Source: a virus. Taken from it: a DNA stretch of 12,636 nt. Position 1 is the stretch's first letter. Every line of letters starts with the position of its first letter. The position numbers and the translations under genes are program-made. The notes under the pieces are model-generated. The model saw only the letters and a list, made by a program, of their open reading frames with translations, did no database searches and was not told where the DNA came from. Below, one piece after another: positions 1-12,636 of this stretch. Location: IMG/VR virus record IMGVR_UViG_3300045988_158908; one strand, given 5' to 3'.

Positions 1-52
1 AAACTAGGCATGACAGTTCGTTCTGACAATTCATGCAAATTCCCCAACTTGT

Positions 53-138
53 CAGACAATTAGACAAATTGTGTGAAATTAGAAACAATTCTGACAATTA
101 GACAAATTGTGTGAAAATTAGAAACAATTCAGACAATT
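53..138. repeat. Tandem direct repeat (38/39-bp unit, about 2.2 copies) inside the left ITR, built from GACAATT / GACAAATT / GAAACAATT iterons
   Basis: Unit 53-90 is CAGACAATTAGACAAATTGTGTGAAATTAGAAACAATT. Unit 91-129 is CTGACAATTAGACAAATTGTGTGAAAATTAGAAACAATT (1 substitution, 1 extra A). A third partial unit, CAGACAATT, lies at 130-138. Exact GACAATT occurs at 25-31, 55-61, 93-99 and 132-138. The array is bracketed by inverted GTCAGACA copies (51-58, and reverse complement at 146-153). Confidence 0.9.
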
Positions 139-178
139 TATCAATCTGTCTGACTTTAATACTTTGTTATAAAAACCG

Positions 179-207
179 TTGACTTTTATATGTAAAACTG
201 CTATTAT
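179..207 (+). promoter_or_regulatory. Sigma-A/sigma-70-type promoter inside the left ITR, reading inward
   Basis: TTGACT (179-184), a 17-nt spacer, then TATTAT (202-207), with an A/T-rich tract upstream. AAGGAG (238-243) and ATG 252 follow downstream. Confidence 0.6.
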
Positions 208-251
208 GAGGTTGTAACAATCAAATAGCAAAATGTAAAGGAGAAAAAATC

Positions 252-710
252 ATGTTTGAATTACAATCTTGTAAAATCACTAGGAGAGAAAAAAGAGGTG
301 ATGCAAGCAATATGTTTACTGTACATATTGCATATTATGAAGCAACTTGTGTTGATGAAAATAAAGAAGAGTACGTTTATTCGAGTGAACTTATTTATGT
401 TAATAAAGTTCCAACATTATTTGATTGCTTAAATGATGCAATTAGCGCATTTTATAATAAAGATGAGTTAATCCCTACTCATAAGAAACGTATAACATTT
501 ATTGAAATTTGCAGTATGATGGGTTCTAAAAAATATTTAGACCTGTATTTAAACGGTACTTTATATAAAAGGCGTTTATACTTGTATGATTTAAATTGTG
601 TTTATTCATACTTGAAAAGAAATGGGTTGTTTGTTTATGATGTAACACAATCACTCACAGTACCAAGTGAGTATAATTTATTAGTAGAAAAGGAGAGAAA
701 AACATGTTAA
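252..710 (+). CDS. Hypothetical early protein (152 aa), no recognisable family
   Basis: First ORF after the ITR promoter. AAGGAG RBS lies 8 nt upstream of the ATG. Its stop overlaps the next start (ATGTTAA, 704-710). I recognise no motif. Confidence 0.6.
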   Translation: MFELQSCKITRREKRGDASNMFTVHIAYYEATCVDENKEEYVYSSELIYVNKVPTLFDCLNDAISAFYNKDELIPTHKKRITFIEICSMMGSKKYLDLYLNGTLYKRRLYLYDLNCVYSYLKRNGLFVYDVTQSLTVPSEYNLLVEKERKTC

Positions 711-1000
711 AATCATCTACAAAAATTACCTGCCGTCCTTATGATGGAAACAGTAAAACAAAAGCTTTTATTGAATTATGTCTCGATAAAACGCTTGTCA
801 TTAAAGGCTTGACGCTTGTAGAGGGTTCACAAGGGTTATTTCTTTCTTTTCCATCATCAAAGGGAAAAGATGGGAAATACCATAACTCAATTTACTCAGT
901 GGATAAGGAGTTTACAGGCCAGTTAGAAGAAGCTTGTATTAAAAAATACAACGAAGCATTTAATAAATCTGATAACTCAGATGAAGCACATTTTTCATAA
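704..1000 (+). CDS. spoVG: SpoVG-family nucleic-acid-binding protein homolog (98 aa)
   Basis: The segment KAFIELCLDKTLVIKGLTLVEGSQGLFLSFPSSKGKDGKYHNSIYSVDKEFTGQLEEACIKKY aligns by eye with B. subtilis SpoVG [63 protein letters not shown]. Shared elements are the GLF..PS....DG core and a similar length. GGAGAG RBS upstream, translationally coupled to the previous ORF. Confidence 0.75.
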   Translation: MLKSSTKITCRPYDGNSKTKAFIELCLDKTLVIKGLTLVEGSQGLFLSFPSSKGKDGKYHNSIYSVDKEFTGQLEEACIKKYNEAFNKSDNSDEAHFS

Positions 1001-1007
1001 AACTTAT

Positions 1008-1038
1008 AAGGTGTACTATTTAGTACACCTTTTTTTTT
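1008..1038 (+). terminator. Rho-independent terminator after the SpoVG-like gene
   Basis: AAGGTGTACT (1008-1017), loop ATTT, AGTACACCTT (1022-1031), giving a 10-bp perfect stem. A run of 7 T follows (1032-1038). Confidence 0.8.
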
Positions 1039-7947: not shown

Positions 7948-9192
7948 ATGATTAATACGTACCCTCACAGCTCCACACAGGACATGAACTTAGACTACCT
8001 CTTAAAAGTGGCAAAGCATGCAGAAGAGGATCACAAAGAATGGTCAGACATAAAAGGGACTGCACAAAAGCAGATTGATGATGCAATTAAAGCGTCACTA
8101 GAATCCGGAGAGATTGGAAAAGTAGTTGATGATGCAACGAAAAAAATCTTGACGGATGAAATTGAACCATTAAAGAACACAGTAACCGAACAAGGCAAAC
8201 TGATTTCTAATCTCGAAAAAAGAGACGGTTTATTTGATTTAAGCGGTAGAACTATCATTATCGGAGACAGCTACACAGTAGGCTATACTCCGGAAGGAAA
8301 TATAACTCCTTGGACAGAACACTTTTTGGATTACTGTTCTATAGACAATGTAACTATTAAAAGCAATGGTGGTGCTTCTTTTTCAACGTCTAATAACTCA
8401 TTTCTTATGCTTTTAAATCAGATTGACGCTGATCCATCTGTAAAGCAGATCTTAGTAGTTGGGGGTTATAATGAGTTCGGTTTTTATTCAGAAATTGAAA
8501 ATGCGATCAACGCTTTCTATGGAGTAGCGCAAACACGTTTTCCAAACGCTAAAATTTTTGTAGCAATGGTTGCATGGTCAGCGGACAGCACACAATGGAA
8601 CAGATTCAAGATTGCAAAAAGTGCGTATAACACACAGCGGAAAAATTGGAACTATCTTAATGGAAGCGAATATATTTTACACGCTGACGGATTCATGGGG
8701 TCGGACGGTTTTCATCCAAACACGACCGGACAGGAACGACTCGCTACATACCTTGCGGAAGCAGTAAAAACCGGGTCTTGTCATCCATCCTTTTATGATG
8801 TGACTGCAAACTTTGAAGCAGGAGACTTTACAGCAACTCCGGGGTCTAGTTGGGTGTTCGTTACAGAGTACAACGAAAATAATAGTAATATCATCTGGAG
8901 TGATTATGTTTGTTTTCCAAACAGCGGTGAACTTGTTTGTAATGGTACAGAATACTATCTAGGTCGCATCTATTCTACCAGTTTTATTGGAGATGGAAAC
9001 GGTTATACATGCTACCCTACTAGTGTGATTGTAAAATCTGGATCCGATTTTTATCACATTCCGGCACAGTTGAATTTCCGAGCGAGACAGATTTATCTTG
9101 CTCTGTATGACATTAGTGATGACAAGCATAACTACAGAACGCTTACAACCGTAACACAGGTACAAATTCACAGAGGATCCATTACAATGTAA
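7948..9192 (+). CDS. Tail appendage / receptor-binding protein with a central SGNH (GDSL) hydrolase domain
   Basis: SGNH blocks are present: I TIIIGDSYTVGY, II SNGGASF, III LVVGGYNEF, V GSDGFHPNTTGQERLA. The N-terminal roughly 90 aa is charged and helical, and the C-terminal roughly 140 aa is a distinct domain. It is the last structural gene, in the phi29 gene 12 position. AAAGGAG RBS. Confidence 0.75.
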   Translation: MINTYPHSSTQDMNLDYLLKVAKHAEEDHKEWSDIKGTAQKQIDDAIKASLESGEIGKVVDDATKKILTDEIEPLKNTVTEQGKLISNLEKRDGLFDLSGRTIIIGDSYTVGYTPEGNITPWTEHFLDYCSIDNVTIKSNGGASFSTSNNSFLMLLNQIDADPSVKQILVVGGYNEFGFYSEIENAINAFYGVAQTRFPNAKIFVAMVAWSADSTQWNRFKIAKSAYNTQRKNWNYLNGSEYILHADGFMGSDGFHPNTTGQERLATYLAEAVKTGSCHPSFYDVTANFEAGDFTATPGSSWVFVTEYNENNSNIIWSDYVCFPNSGELVCNGTEYYLGRIYSTSFIGDGNGYTCYPTSVIVKSGSDFYHIPAQLNFRARQIYLALYDISDDKHNYRTLTTVTQVQIHRGSITM

Positions 9193-9209
9193 TGTTTTCA
9201 CGTGAAACA
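9193..9209. promoter_or_regulatory. Second copy of the TGTTT(T)CACGTGAAACA palindrome, immediately after the appendage gene stop codon
   Basis: TAA (9190-9192) followed by TGTTTTCACGTGAAACA, with one extra T relative to 6300-6315. Confidence 0.5.
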
Positions 9210-9246
9210 AAAAATAAAGGGATGCAAATTTGCATCCCTTTATTTT
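9209..9246. terminator. Bidirectional rho-independent terminator where the two arms converge
   Basis: Perfect palindrome ATAAAGGGATGCAAATTTGCATCCCTTTAT. The stem pairs AAAGGGATGCA (9216-9226) with TGCATCCCTTT (9231-9241). An A-run lies 5' (9209-9214) and a T-run 3' (9243-9246). It sits between the + strand stop (9192) and the polymerase stop (9245-9247). Confidence 0.85.
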
Positions 9247-11371
9247 AACTATATAAAACATCTTTTGTCTCAAACGGCAACGGCAACCCTGTTTCCTTAT
9301 CATACGGAATGGTGTGATCCAATTCATACTCCGTATCGGATAAACGGATTGCACATCCATACTCTATTCTGCATCCATCAACAGTTATATTGTTAATTCC
9401 TTTGCTATAGAGGTATTCCGTTTTAAGTTTCCAACTTGGGTCTTTTTTCCAGTCGTTTGCACGGCGGTAGTTTCTACGATAAGTGAGACTATTTCTATAG
9501 ATGAATCCTTTTTCAAAGTTATTTATATTGTCATCAAGACAGTACACTCCGTCTTTTGGAACTCCTGCAACGGTCTGTTTTAGCTTTCCCTTTTCACGGT
9601 AACAGTAACGCTTGCTACCCATAGTTTTAAATTCGCTATAAATACCGTCAAACTCAGCAATTCCTAGCGTGTGTGATTCTCCATCAAAGAGTACCGTTCC
9701 AAGTCCTCGTTGCTCTGATTTTTTCATGATTTTTTCATTATACTCAACAAGTTTTTTCCTATCCCATTCCGTGCCTTTAACGGAATCGGTGTCAGAATAA
9801 AACCATATTTTGCAACACTTCCCAAGTTCAAATAACTCAGACTGGGCATAGGCTGTAATCCATACTCCCCATTGATAAGGTAAAAAAGAATTTCTACTTT
9901 TGTAATACTTTTGTAACTTTTCATCATATTCAGATTCACATAAAACATCAGTCCATAACCCTGTTTCATAATCTTCTTCAAACATGGATTGGATCATCTT
10001 TTGAACCATCATGCCATAGATTCCATTAAGTTCCCCTTTTGAAATCATATAAAGCACCGGGTCTGCATGTTTCAATGTGTTCTTATGTTCGAAAAGTTCT
10101 ATCACATACTTAATAATCCAATCTGGCAAGTAGTCTTTCTTTGCACGTATGACGTTTGCAACGTCAGCCCATTCAAAGTCATAGGCTTCAAATATGACCT
10201 GCAAATCCGGATCCGTAAACGGATAGATTACAAGATCTGCATTAACGATTTTACCATTATCAAGATTCAACTCCATAGCTTTCTTTTTACTTATCTTATC
10301 TGCATCTGGAAACGTGCAAACTTTTGCTTTGTGAAAAGCAAGAGGTGGCATTGGATGCCCTTTTTTCAAGCGTAGCTTTTTCAAGCGTATATAGCCGGCA
10401 AAAGCATAATGCTCTTTAAGATCCATGATTTCCTGCAACGATAACTTTGTAGAAACAAAGTTTGTCATAGGAAACTTTTCATATACGATTCTAGCCGGAT
10501 AAGAACTTGTAAAATCGTAGCACTCCACCGGTTCCGAAATTAACTGATTGACATAGTAGCGGTTCGCATGAGTATAGCCACCGTGATAGCAGGATGCGAG
10601 CAACTCGTACTGATCTAAACTAAGTCGCATTGACATAAATTTCTTATGCCATTTCTTGTCTTTTCGTGATCTTGATCTTGCTTGGTTACGGATAAAGCCT
10701 GTATTTGTCAATGGGGCAGTAGCAACAGTTACGTTTCTTTGCGATAAATAGAGCCGTAAAGCTTTACACAAGCAGATAGTATCAACACAAACATAAGCTA
10801 ATTCCTTTACAGTACGCCCAGATTCAGGGGTTCTTTTCTTTTTATAGTCCCACGTACCAGTAGCTTTCTCAAGCGTCCCCATGTCCTTACAGAGACGTTC
10901 AAGAGTACGTTGTGTAAGGATAGCACTATCACGGATTTCAATGCCGAAAGATTGCCATTGCATAAATACGTATCTGTGAGTTTTAACAGCTAATTTTCGA
11001 TCCGGAACGCCAAACTTCTCTAATAGATGATTGCGCAGAAACATATAGTCATACGATAGGTTATGTATATAAAATCTCACTGTATGTTCTTTATCAGCAT
11101 GAAGCGTGTCACAAATCCGGTCAATCGTATTGATAAGATCACGTACATGATTACCGTACAAACAGCTATCATTTTCTATAGTTATAGTCCAATCAGTTAT
11201 CCATCCAATGTCTTCATTATCAGACACATAGGTCTCAGTGTCTACAGTTATGATTTTTTCATAAAAAGACTGATAATGTCCTGCATTACTTTTTCGTATG
11301 AAATTACCGTCAAAAAGACGCATGTAATCGTAGTCTTTAAATGATACAATTGGATATCCTGCTATAACCAT
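9245..11371 (-). CDS. Protein-primed family B DNA polymerase
   Basis: Exo I ITVDTETY, Exo II YIHNLSYDYMFL, Exo III YVCVDTICL. Motif A YDFTSSYPA (phi29 DVNSLYPA), motif B KGELNGIYGM (phi29 KLMLNSLYG), motif C FYSDTDSV (phi29 YCDTDS), and KxY as GSKRYCY. 708 aa. Confidence 0.95.
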   Translation of the reverse strand: MVIAGYPIVSFKDYDYMRLFDGNFIRKSNAGHYQSFYEKIITVDTETYVSDNEDIGWITDWTITIENDSCLYGNHVRDLINTIDRICDTLHADKEHTVRFYIHNLSYDYMFLRNHLLEKFGVPDRKLAVKTHRYVFMQWQSFGIEIRDSAILTQRTLERLCKDMGTLEKATGTWDYKKKRTPESGRTVKELAYVCVDTICLCKALRLYLSQRNVTVATAPLTNTGFIRNQARSRSRKDKKWHKKFMSMRLSLDQYELLASCYHGGYTHANRYYVNQLISEPVECYDFTSSYPARIVYEKFPMTNFVSTKLSLQEIMDLKEHYAFAGYIRLKKLRLKKGHPMPPLAFHKAKVCTFPDADKISKKKAMELNLDNGKIVNADLVIYPFTDPDLQVIFEAYDFEWADVANVIRAKKDYLPDWIIKYVIELFEHKNTLKHADPVLYMISKGELNGIYGMMVQKMIQSMFEEDYETGLWTDVLCESEYDEKLQKYYKSRNSFLPYQWGVWITAYAQSELFELGKCCKIWFYSDTDSVKGTEWDRKKLVEYNEKIMKKSEQRGLGTVLFDGESHTLGIAEFDGIYSEFKTMGSKRYCYREKGKLKQTVAGVPKDGVYCLDDNINNFEKGFIYRNSLTYRRNYRRANDWKKDPSWKLKTEYLYSKGINNITVDGCRIEYGCAIRLSDTEYELDHTIPYDKETGLPLPFETKDVLYS

Positions 11372-11382
11372 TTTTTTTTTTT

Positions 11383-12030
11383 TTACCTCTTGTATTTATA
11401 TTTCAGTGCTTCTGCTTCTCCGGAGAAACCTAGCTCTTTTGCTACGTCATCCGCTCTATCTATGTCCGTGCGGTCTCTGAACTCTTCTAATTTGCTAATT
11501 ATTTCATTCATTGTATCACCGTCTCGCAAAGCTTTTCCAACGAACTCTACAGCCTGTTCAGAAGAATATAACAGACTTATAAGTTCAAAAGCATATGACT
11601 GAAAAAATGCACTCATCTCGCTTGTATCTTTGAATTCAAGACCATATTCAGACAACTTCTCACGTCTCTTTTTTATGATGGATTTCCATCCGGGAACCGT
11701 AGAACTTTTTTCTTTTAAGACATTCTGCATCATTTGTACCTGCTTACGCATGGAAGAAATCTGCATATAAAGGACGTTACGATCACTGTAATCCAACTTT
11801 ATTTTTTCTCTTATTCTTTTATTATACCCGAACTTTTTTAGAAATGCATTGTAATCAGCGTAAGCACCACCGGATTCAGAAGTGAATCCTGCTCTCTCTA
11901 AACGAACCATACGCTGATTTAGACGTTTAGCCAAACTTGTATAAAGTCTGGCTAATTCTTTTTCATTAAGTTTATATGGGTTTATATCCTGCCCCTTGGT
12001 TGTGATTCTTTCTGCTCCCTTTAAAGCCAT
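11383..12030 (-). CDS. Putative terminal protein (TP), the primer for DNA replication
   Basis: 215 aa, directly upstream of and coupled to the polymerase gene (phi29 gene 3 / gene 2 arrangement). It has a basic N-terminal region and an acidic C-terminal part. The loose resemblance NEKELARLYTSLAKRLNQRMVRLERAG versus phi29 TP DKAEYARLVKNTKAKIARTKKKYG is suggestive only. AGGAG RBS. Confidence 0.55.
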   Translation of the reverse strand: MALKGAERITTKGQDINPYKLNEKELARLYTSLAKRLNQRMVRLERAGFTSESGGAYADYNAFLKKFGYNKRIREKIKLDYSDRNVLYMQISSMRKQVQMMQNVLKEKSSTVPGWKSIIKKRREKLSEYGLEFKDTSEMSAFFQSYAFELISLLYSSEQAVEFVGKALRDGDTMNEIISKLEEFRDRTDIDRADDVAKELGFSGEAEALKYKYKR

Positions 12031-12032
12031 TG

Positions 12033-12263
12033 CTACTCCTTTCTAAATCTTGGGGCGATCCAATCATCACACTGGTCAAAAGTTCCGTCCGGATAAACTT
12101 CAATACCTTTTACCCATTTAAGAAACATTGTAGGACGTTTATAGCCGGACACTTTGAACTCATTCCAGAGACCGTTGTAATCCATAAACTCGGTGACTGC
12201 ATCTGCTTTTTTCTTTGCGTAGTATTTATAAATTGCGTTAAATTGTGTTTTACTTCTTTTCAT
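12033..12263 (-). CDS. Hypothetical basic early protein (76 aa)
   Basis: AAGGTGA RBS, tightly packed upstream of the TP gene, Lys/Arg-rich N-terminus (MKRSKTQFNAIYKYYAKKKAD). No family recognised. Confidence 0.6.
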   Translation of the reverse strand: MKRSKTQFNAIYKYYAKKKADAVTEFMDYNGLWNEFKVSGYKRPTMFLKWVKGIEVYPDGTFDQCDDWIAPRFRKE

Positions 12264-12289
12264 TGTATGTTCTCACCTTTCCTAATTTT

Positions 12290-12388
12290 TTATACTTCTA
12301 CCAAGAGTTTATTTAATAGTTTCTCAAGATCACGACTTAATTGTTTAAGGTTCATTGTACGTTTACTATAGTACTGGTTCTGCTTCAT
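12290..12388 (-). CDS. Small unannotated ORF (32 aa: MKQNQYYSKRTMNLKQLSRDLEKLLNKLLVEV), first gene of the right arm
   Basis: Hand-translated. ATG at 12388-12386 (minus strand) is preceded by AAGGAG with an 8-nt spacer, about 25 nt downstream of the predicted ITR promoter start site. Stop TAA at 12292-12290. It fills the otherwise empty gap between the promoter and the 76-aa gene, and it falls below the ORF-track length cutoff. Confidence 0.4.
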   Translation of the reverse strand: MKQNQYYSKRTMNLKQLSRDLEKLLNKLLVEV

Positions 12389-12429
12389 CTTTCTATCTCC
12401 TTAATGACTGTATTGATTGTTACAACCTC

Positions 12430-12458
12430 ATAATAGCAGTTTTACATATAAAAGTCAA
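12430..12458 (-). promoter_or_regulatory. Identical promoter inside the right ITR, reading inward on the minus strand
   Basis: Reverse complement of 179-207 (AGTCAA at 12453-12458, ATAATA at 12430-12435). On the minus strand it is followed by AAGGAG and the ATG at 12388. Confidence 0.6.
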
Positions 12459-12498
12459 CGGTTTTTATAACAAAGTATTAAAGTCAGACAGATTGATA

Positions 12499-12584
12499 AA
12501 TTGTCTGAATTGTTTCTAATTTTCACACAATTTGTCTAATTGTCAGAATTGTTTCTAATTTCACACAATTTGTCTAATTGTCTG
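12499..12584. repeat. Mirror copy of the ITR-internal tandem iteron array (right ITR)
   Basis: Reverse complement of 53-138, which follows from the perfect ITR identity. Confidence 0.9.
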
Positions 12585-12636
12585 ACAAGTTGGGGAATTT
12601 GCATGAATTGTCAGAACGAACTGTCATGCCTAGTTT

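Follow-up and report, generated by a model that had tools for sequence, protein, structure and literature searches.

The window analysed here, a stretch of DNA of 12,636 bp, is the complete linear genome of a small phi29-like, protein-primed podophage of the gut, and its two ends carry the same 224-bp inverted terminal repeat (ITR). We hold it to be slightly better than an even prospect that this ITR is a three-part control block, which would combine an origin, a set of repeats expanded from an operator and a strong early promoter, and whose two copies are kept identical. The features on which this reading is built are the following.

1 to 224, plus strand: left ITR, the reverse complement of 12413-12636 over 224 nt at 100%
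12413 to 12636, minus strand: right ITR, the mirror of 1-224
1 to 52 (mirrored at 12585-12636), plus strand: likely origin core, with an AAA start that gives a 3'-TTT template suited to sliding-back priming; near-invariant in relatives
22 to 56, no strand assigned: origin-proximal inverted repeat with 8-bp arms, TCTGACAA (22-29) and TTGTCAGA (49-56), around AATTCCCCAA (38-47)
52 to 138 (mirrored at 12499-12585), plus strand: tandem array, 2.3 copies of a 38/39-bp unit made of sub-units of about 9.75 bp that each end in AATT; repeat word TCWGACAATT
129 to 154, no strand assigned: promoter-proximal palindrome, TCAGACAATTTATCAATCTGTCTGAC, with its GTCTGAC centre at about -63 from the predicted start
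155 to 178, plus strand: A/T-rich stretch upstream of the -35, kept in relatives and similar to an UP element, a function that we infer
179 to 207, plus strand: putative sigma-A-type early promoter of the left arm, with -35 TTGACT (179-184), a 17-nt spacer, TG at 199-200 and -10 TATTAT (202-207); predicted start at about 214
12430 to 12458, minus strand: identical putative promoter of the right arm; predicted start at about 12423
216 to 222, plus strand: AACAATC, a copy of the core of the repeat word at about +3 to +9, among the last bases of the ITR
252 to 1031, plus strand: left early unit, with a 152-aa ORF (252-710), a SpoVG-like ORF (704-1000) and a hairpin terminator (1008-1031)
9211 to 12388, minus strand: right early unit, with a 32-aa ORF (12290-12388), a 76-aa ORF (12033-12263), a putative terminal protein (11383-12030), a family-B DNA polymerase (9245-11371) and a two-way terminator (9211-9246)

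The genome is A/T-rich, and the ITR is its largest non-coding stretch. The plus strand encodes the 152-aa and SpoVG-like ORFs together with a gp16-type packaging ATPase, a phi29-type major capsid protein, an NlpC/P60 lysin, the connector and tail genes. In order from the right end, the minus-strand genes are the 32-aa and 76-aa ORFs, a putative terminal protein of 215 aa and the protein-primed polymerase; the two arms meet at the two-way terminator. The polymerase matches PF03175 (DNA_pol_B_2) with 42.9 bits against a cut-off of 25.8. The 215-aa ORF lies directly 5' of the polymerase gene and was without a match in a family search; it shares 29% identity with the ORF at the equivalent position in Clostridium phage HM2 and 48% with that in MT836115. 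The latter, an unannotated human-gut contig, is the nearest GenBank record (polymerase 67% identical), and among cultured phages the closest are Amedibacillus phages and HM2, whose polymerases are 30-32% identical (HM2, 30%). No tRNA genes were found in the genome, and a search of 185,579 species genomes for a host, using the ITR word and the polymerase, gave no match.

A preliminary description of this DNA had reported that each ITR holds a terminal AAA, four exact GACAATT motifs with variants, a 38/39-bp tandem repeat bracketed by inverted copies of GTCAGACA and a TTGACT-17-TATTAT promoter at 179-207, and each of these elements was recovered in our analysis. AAA begins both genome ends within the perfect 224-nt repeat. 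The exact word GACAATT stands at 25-31, 55-61, 93-99 and 132-138, with the variants GACAAATT at 63-70 and 101-108 and GAAACAATT at 82-90 and 121-129. Tandem Repeats Finder reports an array at 52-138 with a period of 38, 2.3 copies, 93% matches and sub-periods of 19 and 9, and this array is flanked by GTCAGACA at 51-58 and its inverse TGTCTGAC at 147-154. The promoter match gains a TG that makes it an extended -10. The claim that both arms begin from the same predicted promoter also holds, as identical copies precede the first start codons by 45 nt in the left arm and 42 nt in the right arm and are conserved in about 55 ends of close relatives.

The repeat word is confined to the ends of the genome. 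GACAATT occurs eight times in all, always within the two ITRs and never in the 12.2-kb interior. When one mismatch is allowed, CAGACAATT is matched 14 times against 5.8 expected, a count that none of 200 shuffles reaches, and 12 of the 14 matches lie in the ITRs; ACAAATTGT is matched four times against 0.4 expected. Between clades the word itself differs, being GACAATT in one and AACAAATT or GACAAT in the other.

To compare the ends, we used 25 IMG/VR contigs with a terminal protein 88-98% identical to that of the window, as well as further whole contigs retrieved by word searches. Among 11 distinct complete ends of these relatives, nt 1-52 are identical to the window in L062, L065, L089, L114, L116, L117 and L118; the exceptions are L085, with a small internal variant, and L051, in which the first 44 nt are different. 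Since the first 52 nt are invariant whereas the interiors of the same genomes are only 85-93% identical, this segment is under strong constraint and is likely the core protein-priming origin. The pattern AAACT.GGCA.GACA of the terminus is also kept in a second gut clade (clade 2). Sliding-back on a 3'-TTT template has been established for phi29, GA-1, Nf and Cp-1 (PMC4974454).

The inverted repeat in this segment extends the comparison beyond the close relatives. In clade 2 the arms lie at 22-32 and 45-55, as far from the end as those of the window. Cp-1, a pneumococcal phage of the Salasmaviridae, has an 8-bp inverted repeat at 24-31 and 49-56 around AATTCCCCCAA, again at that distance, so the window possesses the Cp-1-type trait of an inverted repeat around ATTCCCC(C)AA at approximately 22-56 nt from the end. 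The sequence of the arms differs between the three lineages (window, clade 2 and Cp-1), and the loop motif ATTCCCCAA is kept. As the arms vary and the loop is constant, the first GACAATT (25-31) and GTCAGACA (51-58) belong to this origin-proximal element. A possible but rather doubtful reading is that the hairpin-like repeat around ATTCCCCAA serves origin recognition widely and connects Cp-1 to uncultured gut phages.

The likeness to Cp-1 is not restricted to the origin. According to its GenBank annotation, from which we took both the promoters and the ITR, Cp-1 has a 236-bp ITR that starts with AAA, comparable to the long ITR of the window, with an inward-facing promoter at the inner boundary of each copy, such that both arms are read from equivalent promoters, as predicted for the window. 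The statement of the preliminary description that nothing similar was recognised is therefore too strong, since the Cp-1 record annotates promoters in and at its ITRs. There are differences as well. The -35 of the inward promoter of Cp-1 lies within the ITR and the -10 just past it, so that the boundary falls inside the spacer, whereas in the window it falls after the -10; Cp-1 carries an annotated outward promoter in the ITR (150-177) without a conserved equivalent in the window; and Cp-1 lacks a tandem array of a short word. The two phages are distant, as Cp-1 was not among the matches of the window polymerase search. The ITR of the window is a Cp-1-like long ITR in an uncultured gut phage clade, in which the arrangement of equivalent promoters is already known and the variable run of repeats is unusual.

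Clostridium phage HM2 (LT600745) offers a second comparison, with an ITR of at least 170 bp and TTGACA-17-GATAAT with TG inside it at both ends. Identity between its ends stops just past the -10, as in the window; however, no short-repeat array was found in its ITR, and its terminal sequence is unlike that of the window. The Amedibacillus phages AD70P2 and AD70P3 and Salmonella phage astrithr have ITRs of 55 bp, none detected and 18 bp, respectively, with no promoter inside, so long promoter-bearing ITRs are not universal in this polymerase lineage.

In a scan of the whole genome the promoter ties for the top score (10/12) and is the sole 10/12 match with a TG, but promoter-like matches number 53 against 45 expected and the ITR match is not significant alone; support for the promoter comes from conservation and position. 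In about 55 ends of close relatives, TTGACT forms the -35 and is separated by 17 nt from the -10 (by 18 nt in three ends); the TGn is kept in 51 of 55, and the -10 is TATTAT, TACTAT or TAATAT, with changes confined to positions 3 and 4. Variation restricted to these two least critical positions and to the N of TGN fits a working promoter. One relative, L115, has a weaker -35, TTTACT. In clade 2, whose polymerase is 67% identical, the ITR sequence is another one, yet TTGACA-17-TATAAT is found at the same place. The region from 154 to 224 has a GC content of 25%. In the window clade, clade 2 and HM2 the two ends cease to match at the -10, or at the latest about 10 nt past the predicted start; the ITR extends from the origin through the early promoter and no further. 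The promoter faces away from the origin, and transcription from it would therefore not cross the origin; this orientation, like the many promoter-like matches in the genome, weighs against the three-part reading.

The same non-coding region could conceivably encode a structured RNA, such as a phi29-like packaging RNA, or be an artefact of assembly. An RNA would find some encouragement in the size of this non-coding stretch and in the outward promoter annotated inside the ITR of Cp-1. Nevertheless, Rfam returned no match anywhere in the ITR (across the whole genome there were just two weak, sub-threshold matches, at 9165-9250), the ITR folds no better than shuffled sequence (z = -1.65 and -1.42 for the two strands), and the length of the array varies freely among relatives. 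The outward promoter-like sites of the window are weak 9/12 matches that lie within repeat units only and are absent from relatives without such units. On the grounds of the Rfam search, the folding and the free array length we rejected a packaging RNA or other RNA in the ITR. An artefact is contradicted by the same terminal sequence at the exact contig ends of several independent assemblies (those of L062, L065, L089, L114, L116, L117 and L118) and by an identical array recovered from different datasets (L116 and L118). We consider either possibility extremely unlikely.

Between the origin and the promoter the picture changes, for here the relatives disagree. The preliminary description had proposed that each ITR combines an origin, an iteron array and an inward promoter, and had pointed to conservation of the repeats in related contigs as a way to check this. 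The three-part layout stands, but the array is not conserved. The number of GACAATT copies per end ranges from 1 to 18 in relatives, the array and the stretch upstream (from about nt 52/53 to the -35) occupy 48-276 nt, and in the shortest form, L085, they are reduced to one palindrome, GTCAGACAATTTATTAATCTGTCTGAC. L089 and L114 have pure runs of the 9-bp CAGACAATT, L095 and L070 mix 9- and 39-bp units, and L065 has many units of 9 and 20 bp; the 9-bp, approximately 20-bp and 38/39-bp layouts all multiply the same word, TCWGACAATT. Neither the number nor the spacing of the copies is fixed among relatives, as it would be for iterons, and with 1 to 18 copies and a shortest form that is a single palindrome the repeats are not iterons in the strict sense. 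The window resembles plasmid iterons in having several copies of a short word beside an origin and a promoter, but differs from them in that its units are conserved neither in size nor in spacing nor in number, and in that the ends would be replicated by protein priming. No Rep-type initiator was found to be encoded in the genome in Pfam and PHROG searches.

The arrays match at the two ends of one genome (window, L114, L051 and L095) and differ between genomes. In L115, a private T-to-G change recurs in both units of the array, and TTTACT is the -35 at both ends. The matched ends and the shared private changes show that the arrays are genuine and did not arise as noise in assembly, and the sequences identify the array as a slippage-prone repeat under concerted evolution. 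What does not vary is the right half of the palindrome, as the GTCTGAC centre lies 23-24 nt upstream of the -35 in every clade-1 relative, whatever the size of the array; clade 2 has ATTGTCTGACAAT at about -70. The two 38/39-bp units of the window are one state of expansion of the left half of the palindrome.

It is possible that the array is nothing other than a neutral, slippage-prone repeat, in which case only the origin repeat, the single palindrome and the promoter would be functional and the extra copies would be inert. Much of the variation described above is what this explanation predicts, including 1-18 copies between identical flanks and a relative with a single palindrome. Close relatives can differ by single 9-bp units, private mutations common to the units of one array point to recent duplication, and origin and promoter do not stay in helical phase, the array lengths differing by 36, 38, 39, 48, 57, 58, 66, 77, 78 and 228 nt. 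The range of copy number and the absence of a kept phase argue against a role with fixed stoichiometry and fit neutral slippage. However, nearly all relatives are expanded, the independent 9-, 20- and 38/39-bp layouts multiply a word that is absent from the interior, and the 9.75-bp phasing of AATT exceeds that of every interior window tested. We regard an inert array as a realistic alternative, though one that stands on the unlikely side.

This phasing raises a further alternative, namely that the array acts by the shape of its DNA. A/T tracts at approximately 9.75 bp could produce curved or easily wrapped DNA. Such DNA could strengthen the promoter next to it, help the end to unwind or provide a nucleation site for a non-specific architectural protein such as phi29 p6. 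The density of AATT is 9.5 per 100 nt at nt 25-140 versus 0.66 per 100 nt in the interior; 11 AATT words lie between nt 28 and 138 at a spacing of 9-11 bp, with one 20-bp gap, and the AA/TT peak at 9.75 bp was equalled in strength by none (0%) of the approximately 600 interior windows tested. There is also a precedent: in phi29, p6 has nucleation sites at nt 46-68 from the left end and at a similar position towards the right end; it reads a pattern of bendability and not a sequence, and it represses promoter C2, which lies close to the end (PMC4974454). However, the periodicity of p6 is 12/24 bp (PMC4974454), and this is not found in the window, where the peak lies at 9.75 bp. No p6 homologue was detected among the early proteins by Pfam or PHROG, and relatives with pure 9-bp units or no expansion change or lose the phasing. 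An effect of DNA shape therefore seems improbable to us.

The resemblance to phi29 would lie at another level. In the p6 complex of phi29, an end region of tens to about 150 bp could serve both activation of the origin and repression of an early promoter, as is proposed here for the window, although the ITR of phi29 measures 6 bp and that of the window 224 bp. Any likeness to p6 is functional, is not one of membership, and is speculative. With the same reservation, co-regulation of both ends by one DNA-binding protein and a p6-like coupling of the origin to the promoter, as suggested in the preliminary description, are possible. Analogies exist outside the phages as well. The ITRs of adenoviruses have protein-primed ends in which a short core origin is followed by an auxiliary origin with NFI and Oct-1 sites, although these factor sites are single and fixed and do not form an expanding array, and the ITRs of poxviruses contain tandem repeats of variable copy number. 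Adenoviruses and poxviruses are eukaryotic viruses, and their sequences and factors are unrelated to those of the window.

If the word is bound by a protein, a regulator of the host might be considered, for instance CodY or Spo0A as used by phi29, and the repeats would then link the phage to host physiology. AATTGTGTGAAAATT (105-119) matches the CodY box consensus at 13 of 15 positions, and four of five CodY-like matches with no more than three mismatches lie in the ITRs. These five matches compare with 2.9 expected and were reached in 35 of 200 shuffles, which is not significant; moreover, the CodY-like part belongs to the 38-bp unit, which many relatives lack, and no Spo0A box was found in the ITR. 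Host regulator boxes were rejected on this basis, being not above chance for CodY and missing from the ITR for Spo0A, and we judge such a link very unlikely.

Among the proteins encoded by the phage, the SpoVG-like protein is the only early protein of a known DNA- or RNA-binding family and the only one for which a recognisable DNA-binding fold was obtained as a candidate. It matches PF04026 with 62.8 bits (cut-off 29.6) and solved SpoVG structures with E = 1.5e-10, and it is also kept in clade 2. A basic K-R doublet is required for DNA binding by the SpoVG proteins of S. aureus and B. burgdorferi (PMC3688583). The aligned residues in the phage protein are S-K, with one residue of the doublet kept. 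The S. aureus SpoVG motif TAATT(T/A) is present only as AAATTA, once per 38-bp unit, and this motif is a weak lead, as many relatives are without 38-bp units. The 152-, 76- and 32-aa ORFs had no match in PHROGs or Pfam, and homologues of the 152-aa and 76-aa proteins were not found in MT836115 by tblastn. The 152-aa protein is widespread in metagenomes, where it accounts for 209 clusters. A search for a binder by structure yielded no candidate from these two proteins: the model of the 152-aa protein was poor and unusable (pLDDT 52), and that of the 76-aa protein was confident (pLDDT 90) and had no structural relative in the PDB or among viral structures except its own orthologue.

We return to the three-part control block, of which the anatomy, the conservation and the variable copy number are observed directly, whereas promoter activity, protein binding and any connection of origin and promoter are predicted. 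It would work as follows. Copying and repair of the ends primed by the terminal protein would keep the two ITRs identical. Nucleotides 1-52 would serve as the protein-priming origin, with a 3'-TTT template for sliding-back and the inverted repeat around AATTCCCCAA. At nt 52-154, replication slippage would have expanded the left half of a palindromic, operator-like site, GTCAGACAATT..AATCTGTCTGAC. The repeat word is present in the origin repeat, in the palindrome at -63 and, as AACAAT, at +3 to +9, and nowhere in the interior, and for this reason it is taken as the site of an end-binding protein. TCWGACAATT would most likely be recognised, in a sequence-specific manner, by a protein active at the genome ends, and either a phage early protein or the complex of terminal protein and polymerase is a candidate binder. 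The sites that matter would be the fixed ones, that is, the origin repeat, the palindrome at about -63 and possibly the copy at +3 to +9, and extra copies of the word would be tolerated and would only modulate the effect. Relatives have AACAATT, AACAATC or AACAAAT at the position of 216-222, and AACAATC is at most a putative operator.

Nucleotides 179-207 would constitute a strong host sigma-A promoter with an extended -10, whose start would mark the inner edge of the ITR. Upon entry, host RNA polymerase would read inward from both ends, with starts at about 214 and 12423. In the right arm this would yield the 32-aa and 76-aa proteins together with the terminal protein and the polymerase; in the left arm it would cover the 152-aa and SpoVG-like genes and end at the hairpin (1008-1031).

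It is possible, although rather doubtful, to go one step further and to view the array as a fast-evolving landing pad for one phage protein, tunable in copy number, that sets origin firing and early transcription at both ends. Because the ITRs are kept identical, one such protein would act on both ends together, and the SpoVG-like protein is the only candidate for this role with family-level evidence of nucleic-acid binding. If this were true, the system would be a sequence-specific counterpart of phi29 p6 that evolves in the style of a contingency locus. Current understanding is unchanged unless binding and function are shown, and nothing in these results contradicts current knowledge.

The arrangement found here nevertheless points to a recurring design in phi29-like phages with long ITRs (the window clade, the second gut clade, HM2 and Cp-1), in which the ITR begins with the origin, reaches as far as the early promoter and stops there. 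A 12-kb genome would in this way obtain symmetric early expression from one sequence, whose two copies are held identical by replication. The relatives with 1-18 copies of the word form a natural series in which it could be tested whether end repeats tune replication or transcription. Finally, the invariant 52-bp end with its ATTCCCCAA element is a candidate minimal origin for protein-primed amplification or orthogonal-replication tools.

A conserved structured RNA candidate lies downstream of the packaging ATPase gene, and this part of the window holds further sequence elements on both of its sides:

2069-2097: promoter-like sequence CTGACT-17-TAAAAT with TG
2124-2193: structured RNA candidate, conserved, in the intergenic stretch 2111-2249 between the packaging ATPase gene and the next ORF
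2150-2163 with 2208-2221: second pairing, GGAAACGGATGCTA / TAGTATCCGTTTC, which stops directly upstream of the ribosome-binding site
2322-2398: CAGAAC hexanucleotide repeat, 12.8 copies, within the ORF at 2250-2537

The RNA candidate has no match in Rfam. Its 10-bp closing helix (AAGGGAAAAC / GTTTTCCCTT) encloses two hairpins, CCGT..ACGG and GGG-AUGAUUA-CCC, and the UGAU of the last loop is complementary to an AUCA in the first junction. Across 11 relatives, 99.5% of the cells are paired and two-sided changes occur at 7 of the 17 pairs. In MT836115.1 (L026), a member of a second gut phage clade (clade 2) with a polymerase 67% identical to that of the window, the counterpart of the closing helix is nearly all replaced (TAGGTCAACG / CGTTGACCTA). 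The equivalent of the second pairing in this phage, GCCGGAAGC / GCTTCCGGC, is compensatory. As the second pairing crosses the closing helix, the two helices would either coexist in a pseudoknot or belong to alternative folds. The closing helix is followed by a terminator-like U-run. This RNA could act as a packaging-RNA analogue or, alternatively, serve the late operon as a leader element. Further downstream, the CAGAAC repeat codes for a run of Gln and Asn in a protein of 95 aa, whose gene is located just upstream of the capsid gene.

Upstream of the ATPase gene, the stop codon of the SpoVG-like gene and the ATPase start codon are separated by 54 nt only (1001-1054). This gap is filled by a terminator hairpin (1008-1031), a T-run, and a ribosome-binding site, and a late promoter would not fit. 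Thus, expression of the ATPase gene may depend on read-through from the promoter within the inverted terminal repeat (ITR).

The early genes behind the ITR promoters are arranged differently in MT836115.1, where the module of terminal protein and polymerase is found at the left end, on the strand shared with the structural genes, and the right end retains only an ORF of the 32-aa type. Therefore, the modules adjacent to the ITR promoters have been rearranged between the clades. No homologues of the 152-aa and 76-aa proteins were detected in this genome by tblastn. The 32-aa ORF with which the window's right arm begins (12290-12388, minus strand) matches the MT836115.1 right-end ORF over the first 20 residues of the latter, which runs at least 60 codons past the matched part; this comparison suggests that the window's ORF may be a shortened remnant. 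For the 76-aa early protein (12033-12263, minus strand), AlphaFold gave a confident model (pLDDT 90) in which one long helix is combined with two short ones and a beta hairpin, and its own orthologue was the sole structural relative recovered from PDB or BFVD.

The genome ends also vary among close relatives. In QZMI01000781.1 (L115), the -35 element reads TTTACT at either end (1-220 and its mirror image on the right), and both array units have GAAAAGTAG in place of GAAAATTAG. Concerted evolution, acting within each ITR as well as between the two, is clearly seen here. In IMGVR_UViG_3300045988_152568 (L051), a different terminus of 44 nt (AAATCTATCACAGAAGATGATGC...; 1-44 and the mirrored right end) stands where the origin normally has its first 24 nt. 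This terminus was not found in any other locus compared; either the origin end has been replaced or the assembly is chimeric.

A further variable repeat near the ends is present in the clade-2 relative L037, in which an 11-nt unit, ATAATCAGGCC, occurs three times in tandem (178-214) in the leader that runs from the ITR promoter to the first start codon. MT836125.1 (L045), a more distant gut relative whose polymerase is 31% identical and whose ITR measures 105 bp or more, has short repeats of its own (TTAACGTGGTAAAGTG, two to three copies; 23-66) downstream of a TTTCCC motif. Therefore, short repeats near the origin may be common in this phage group.
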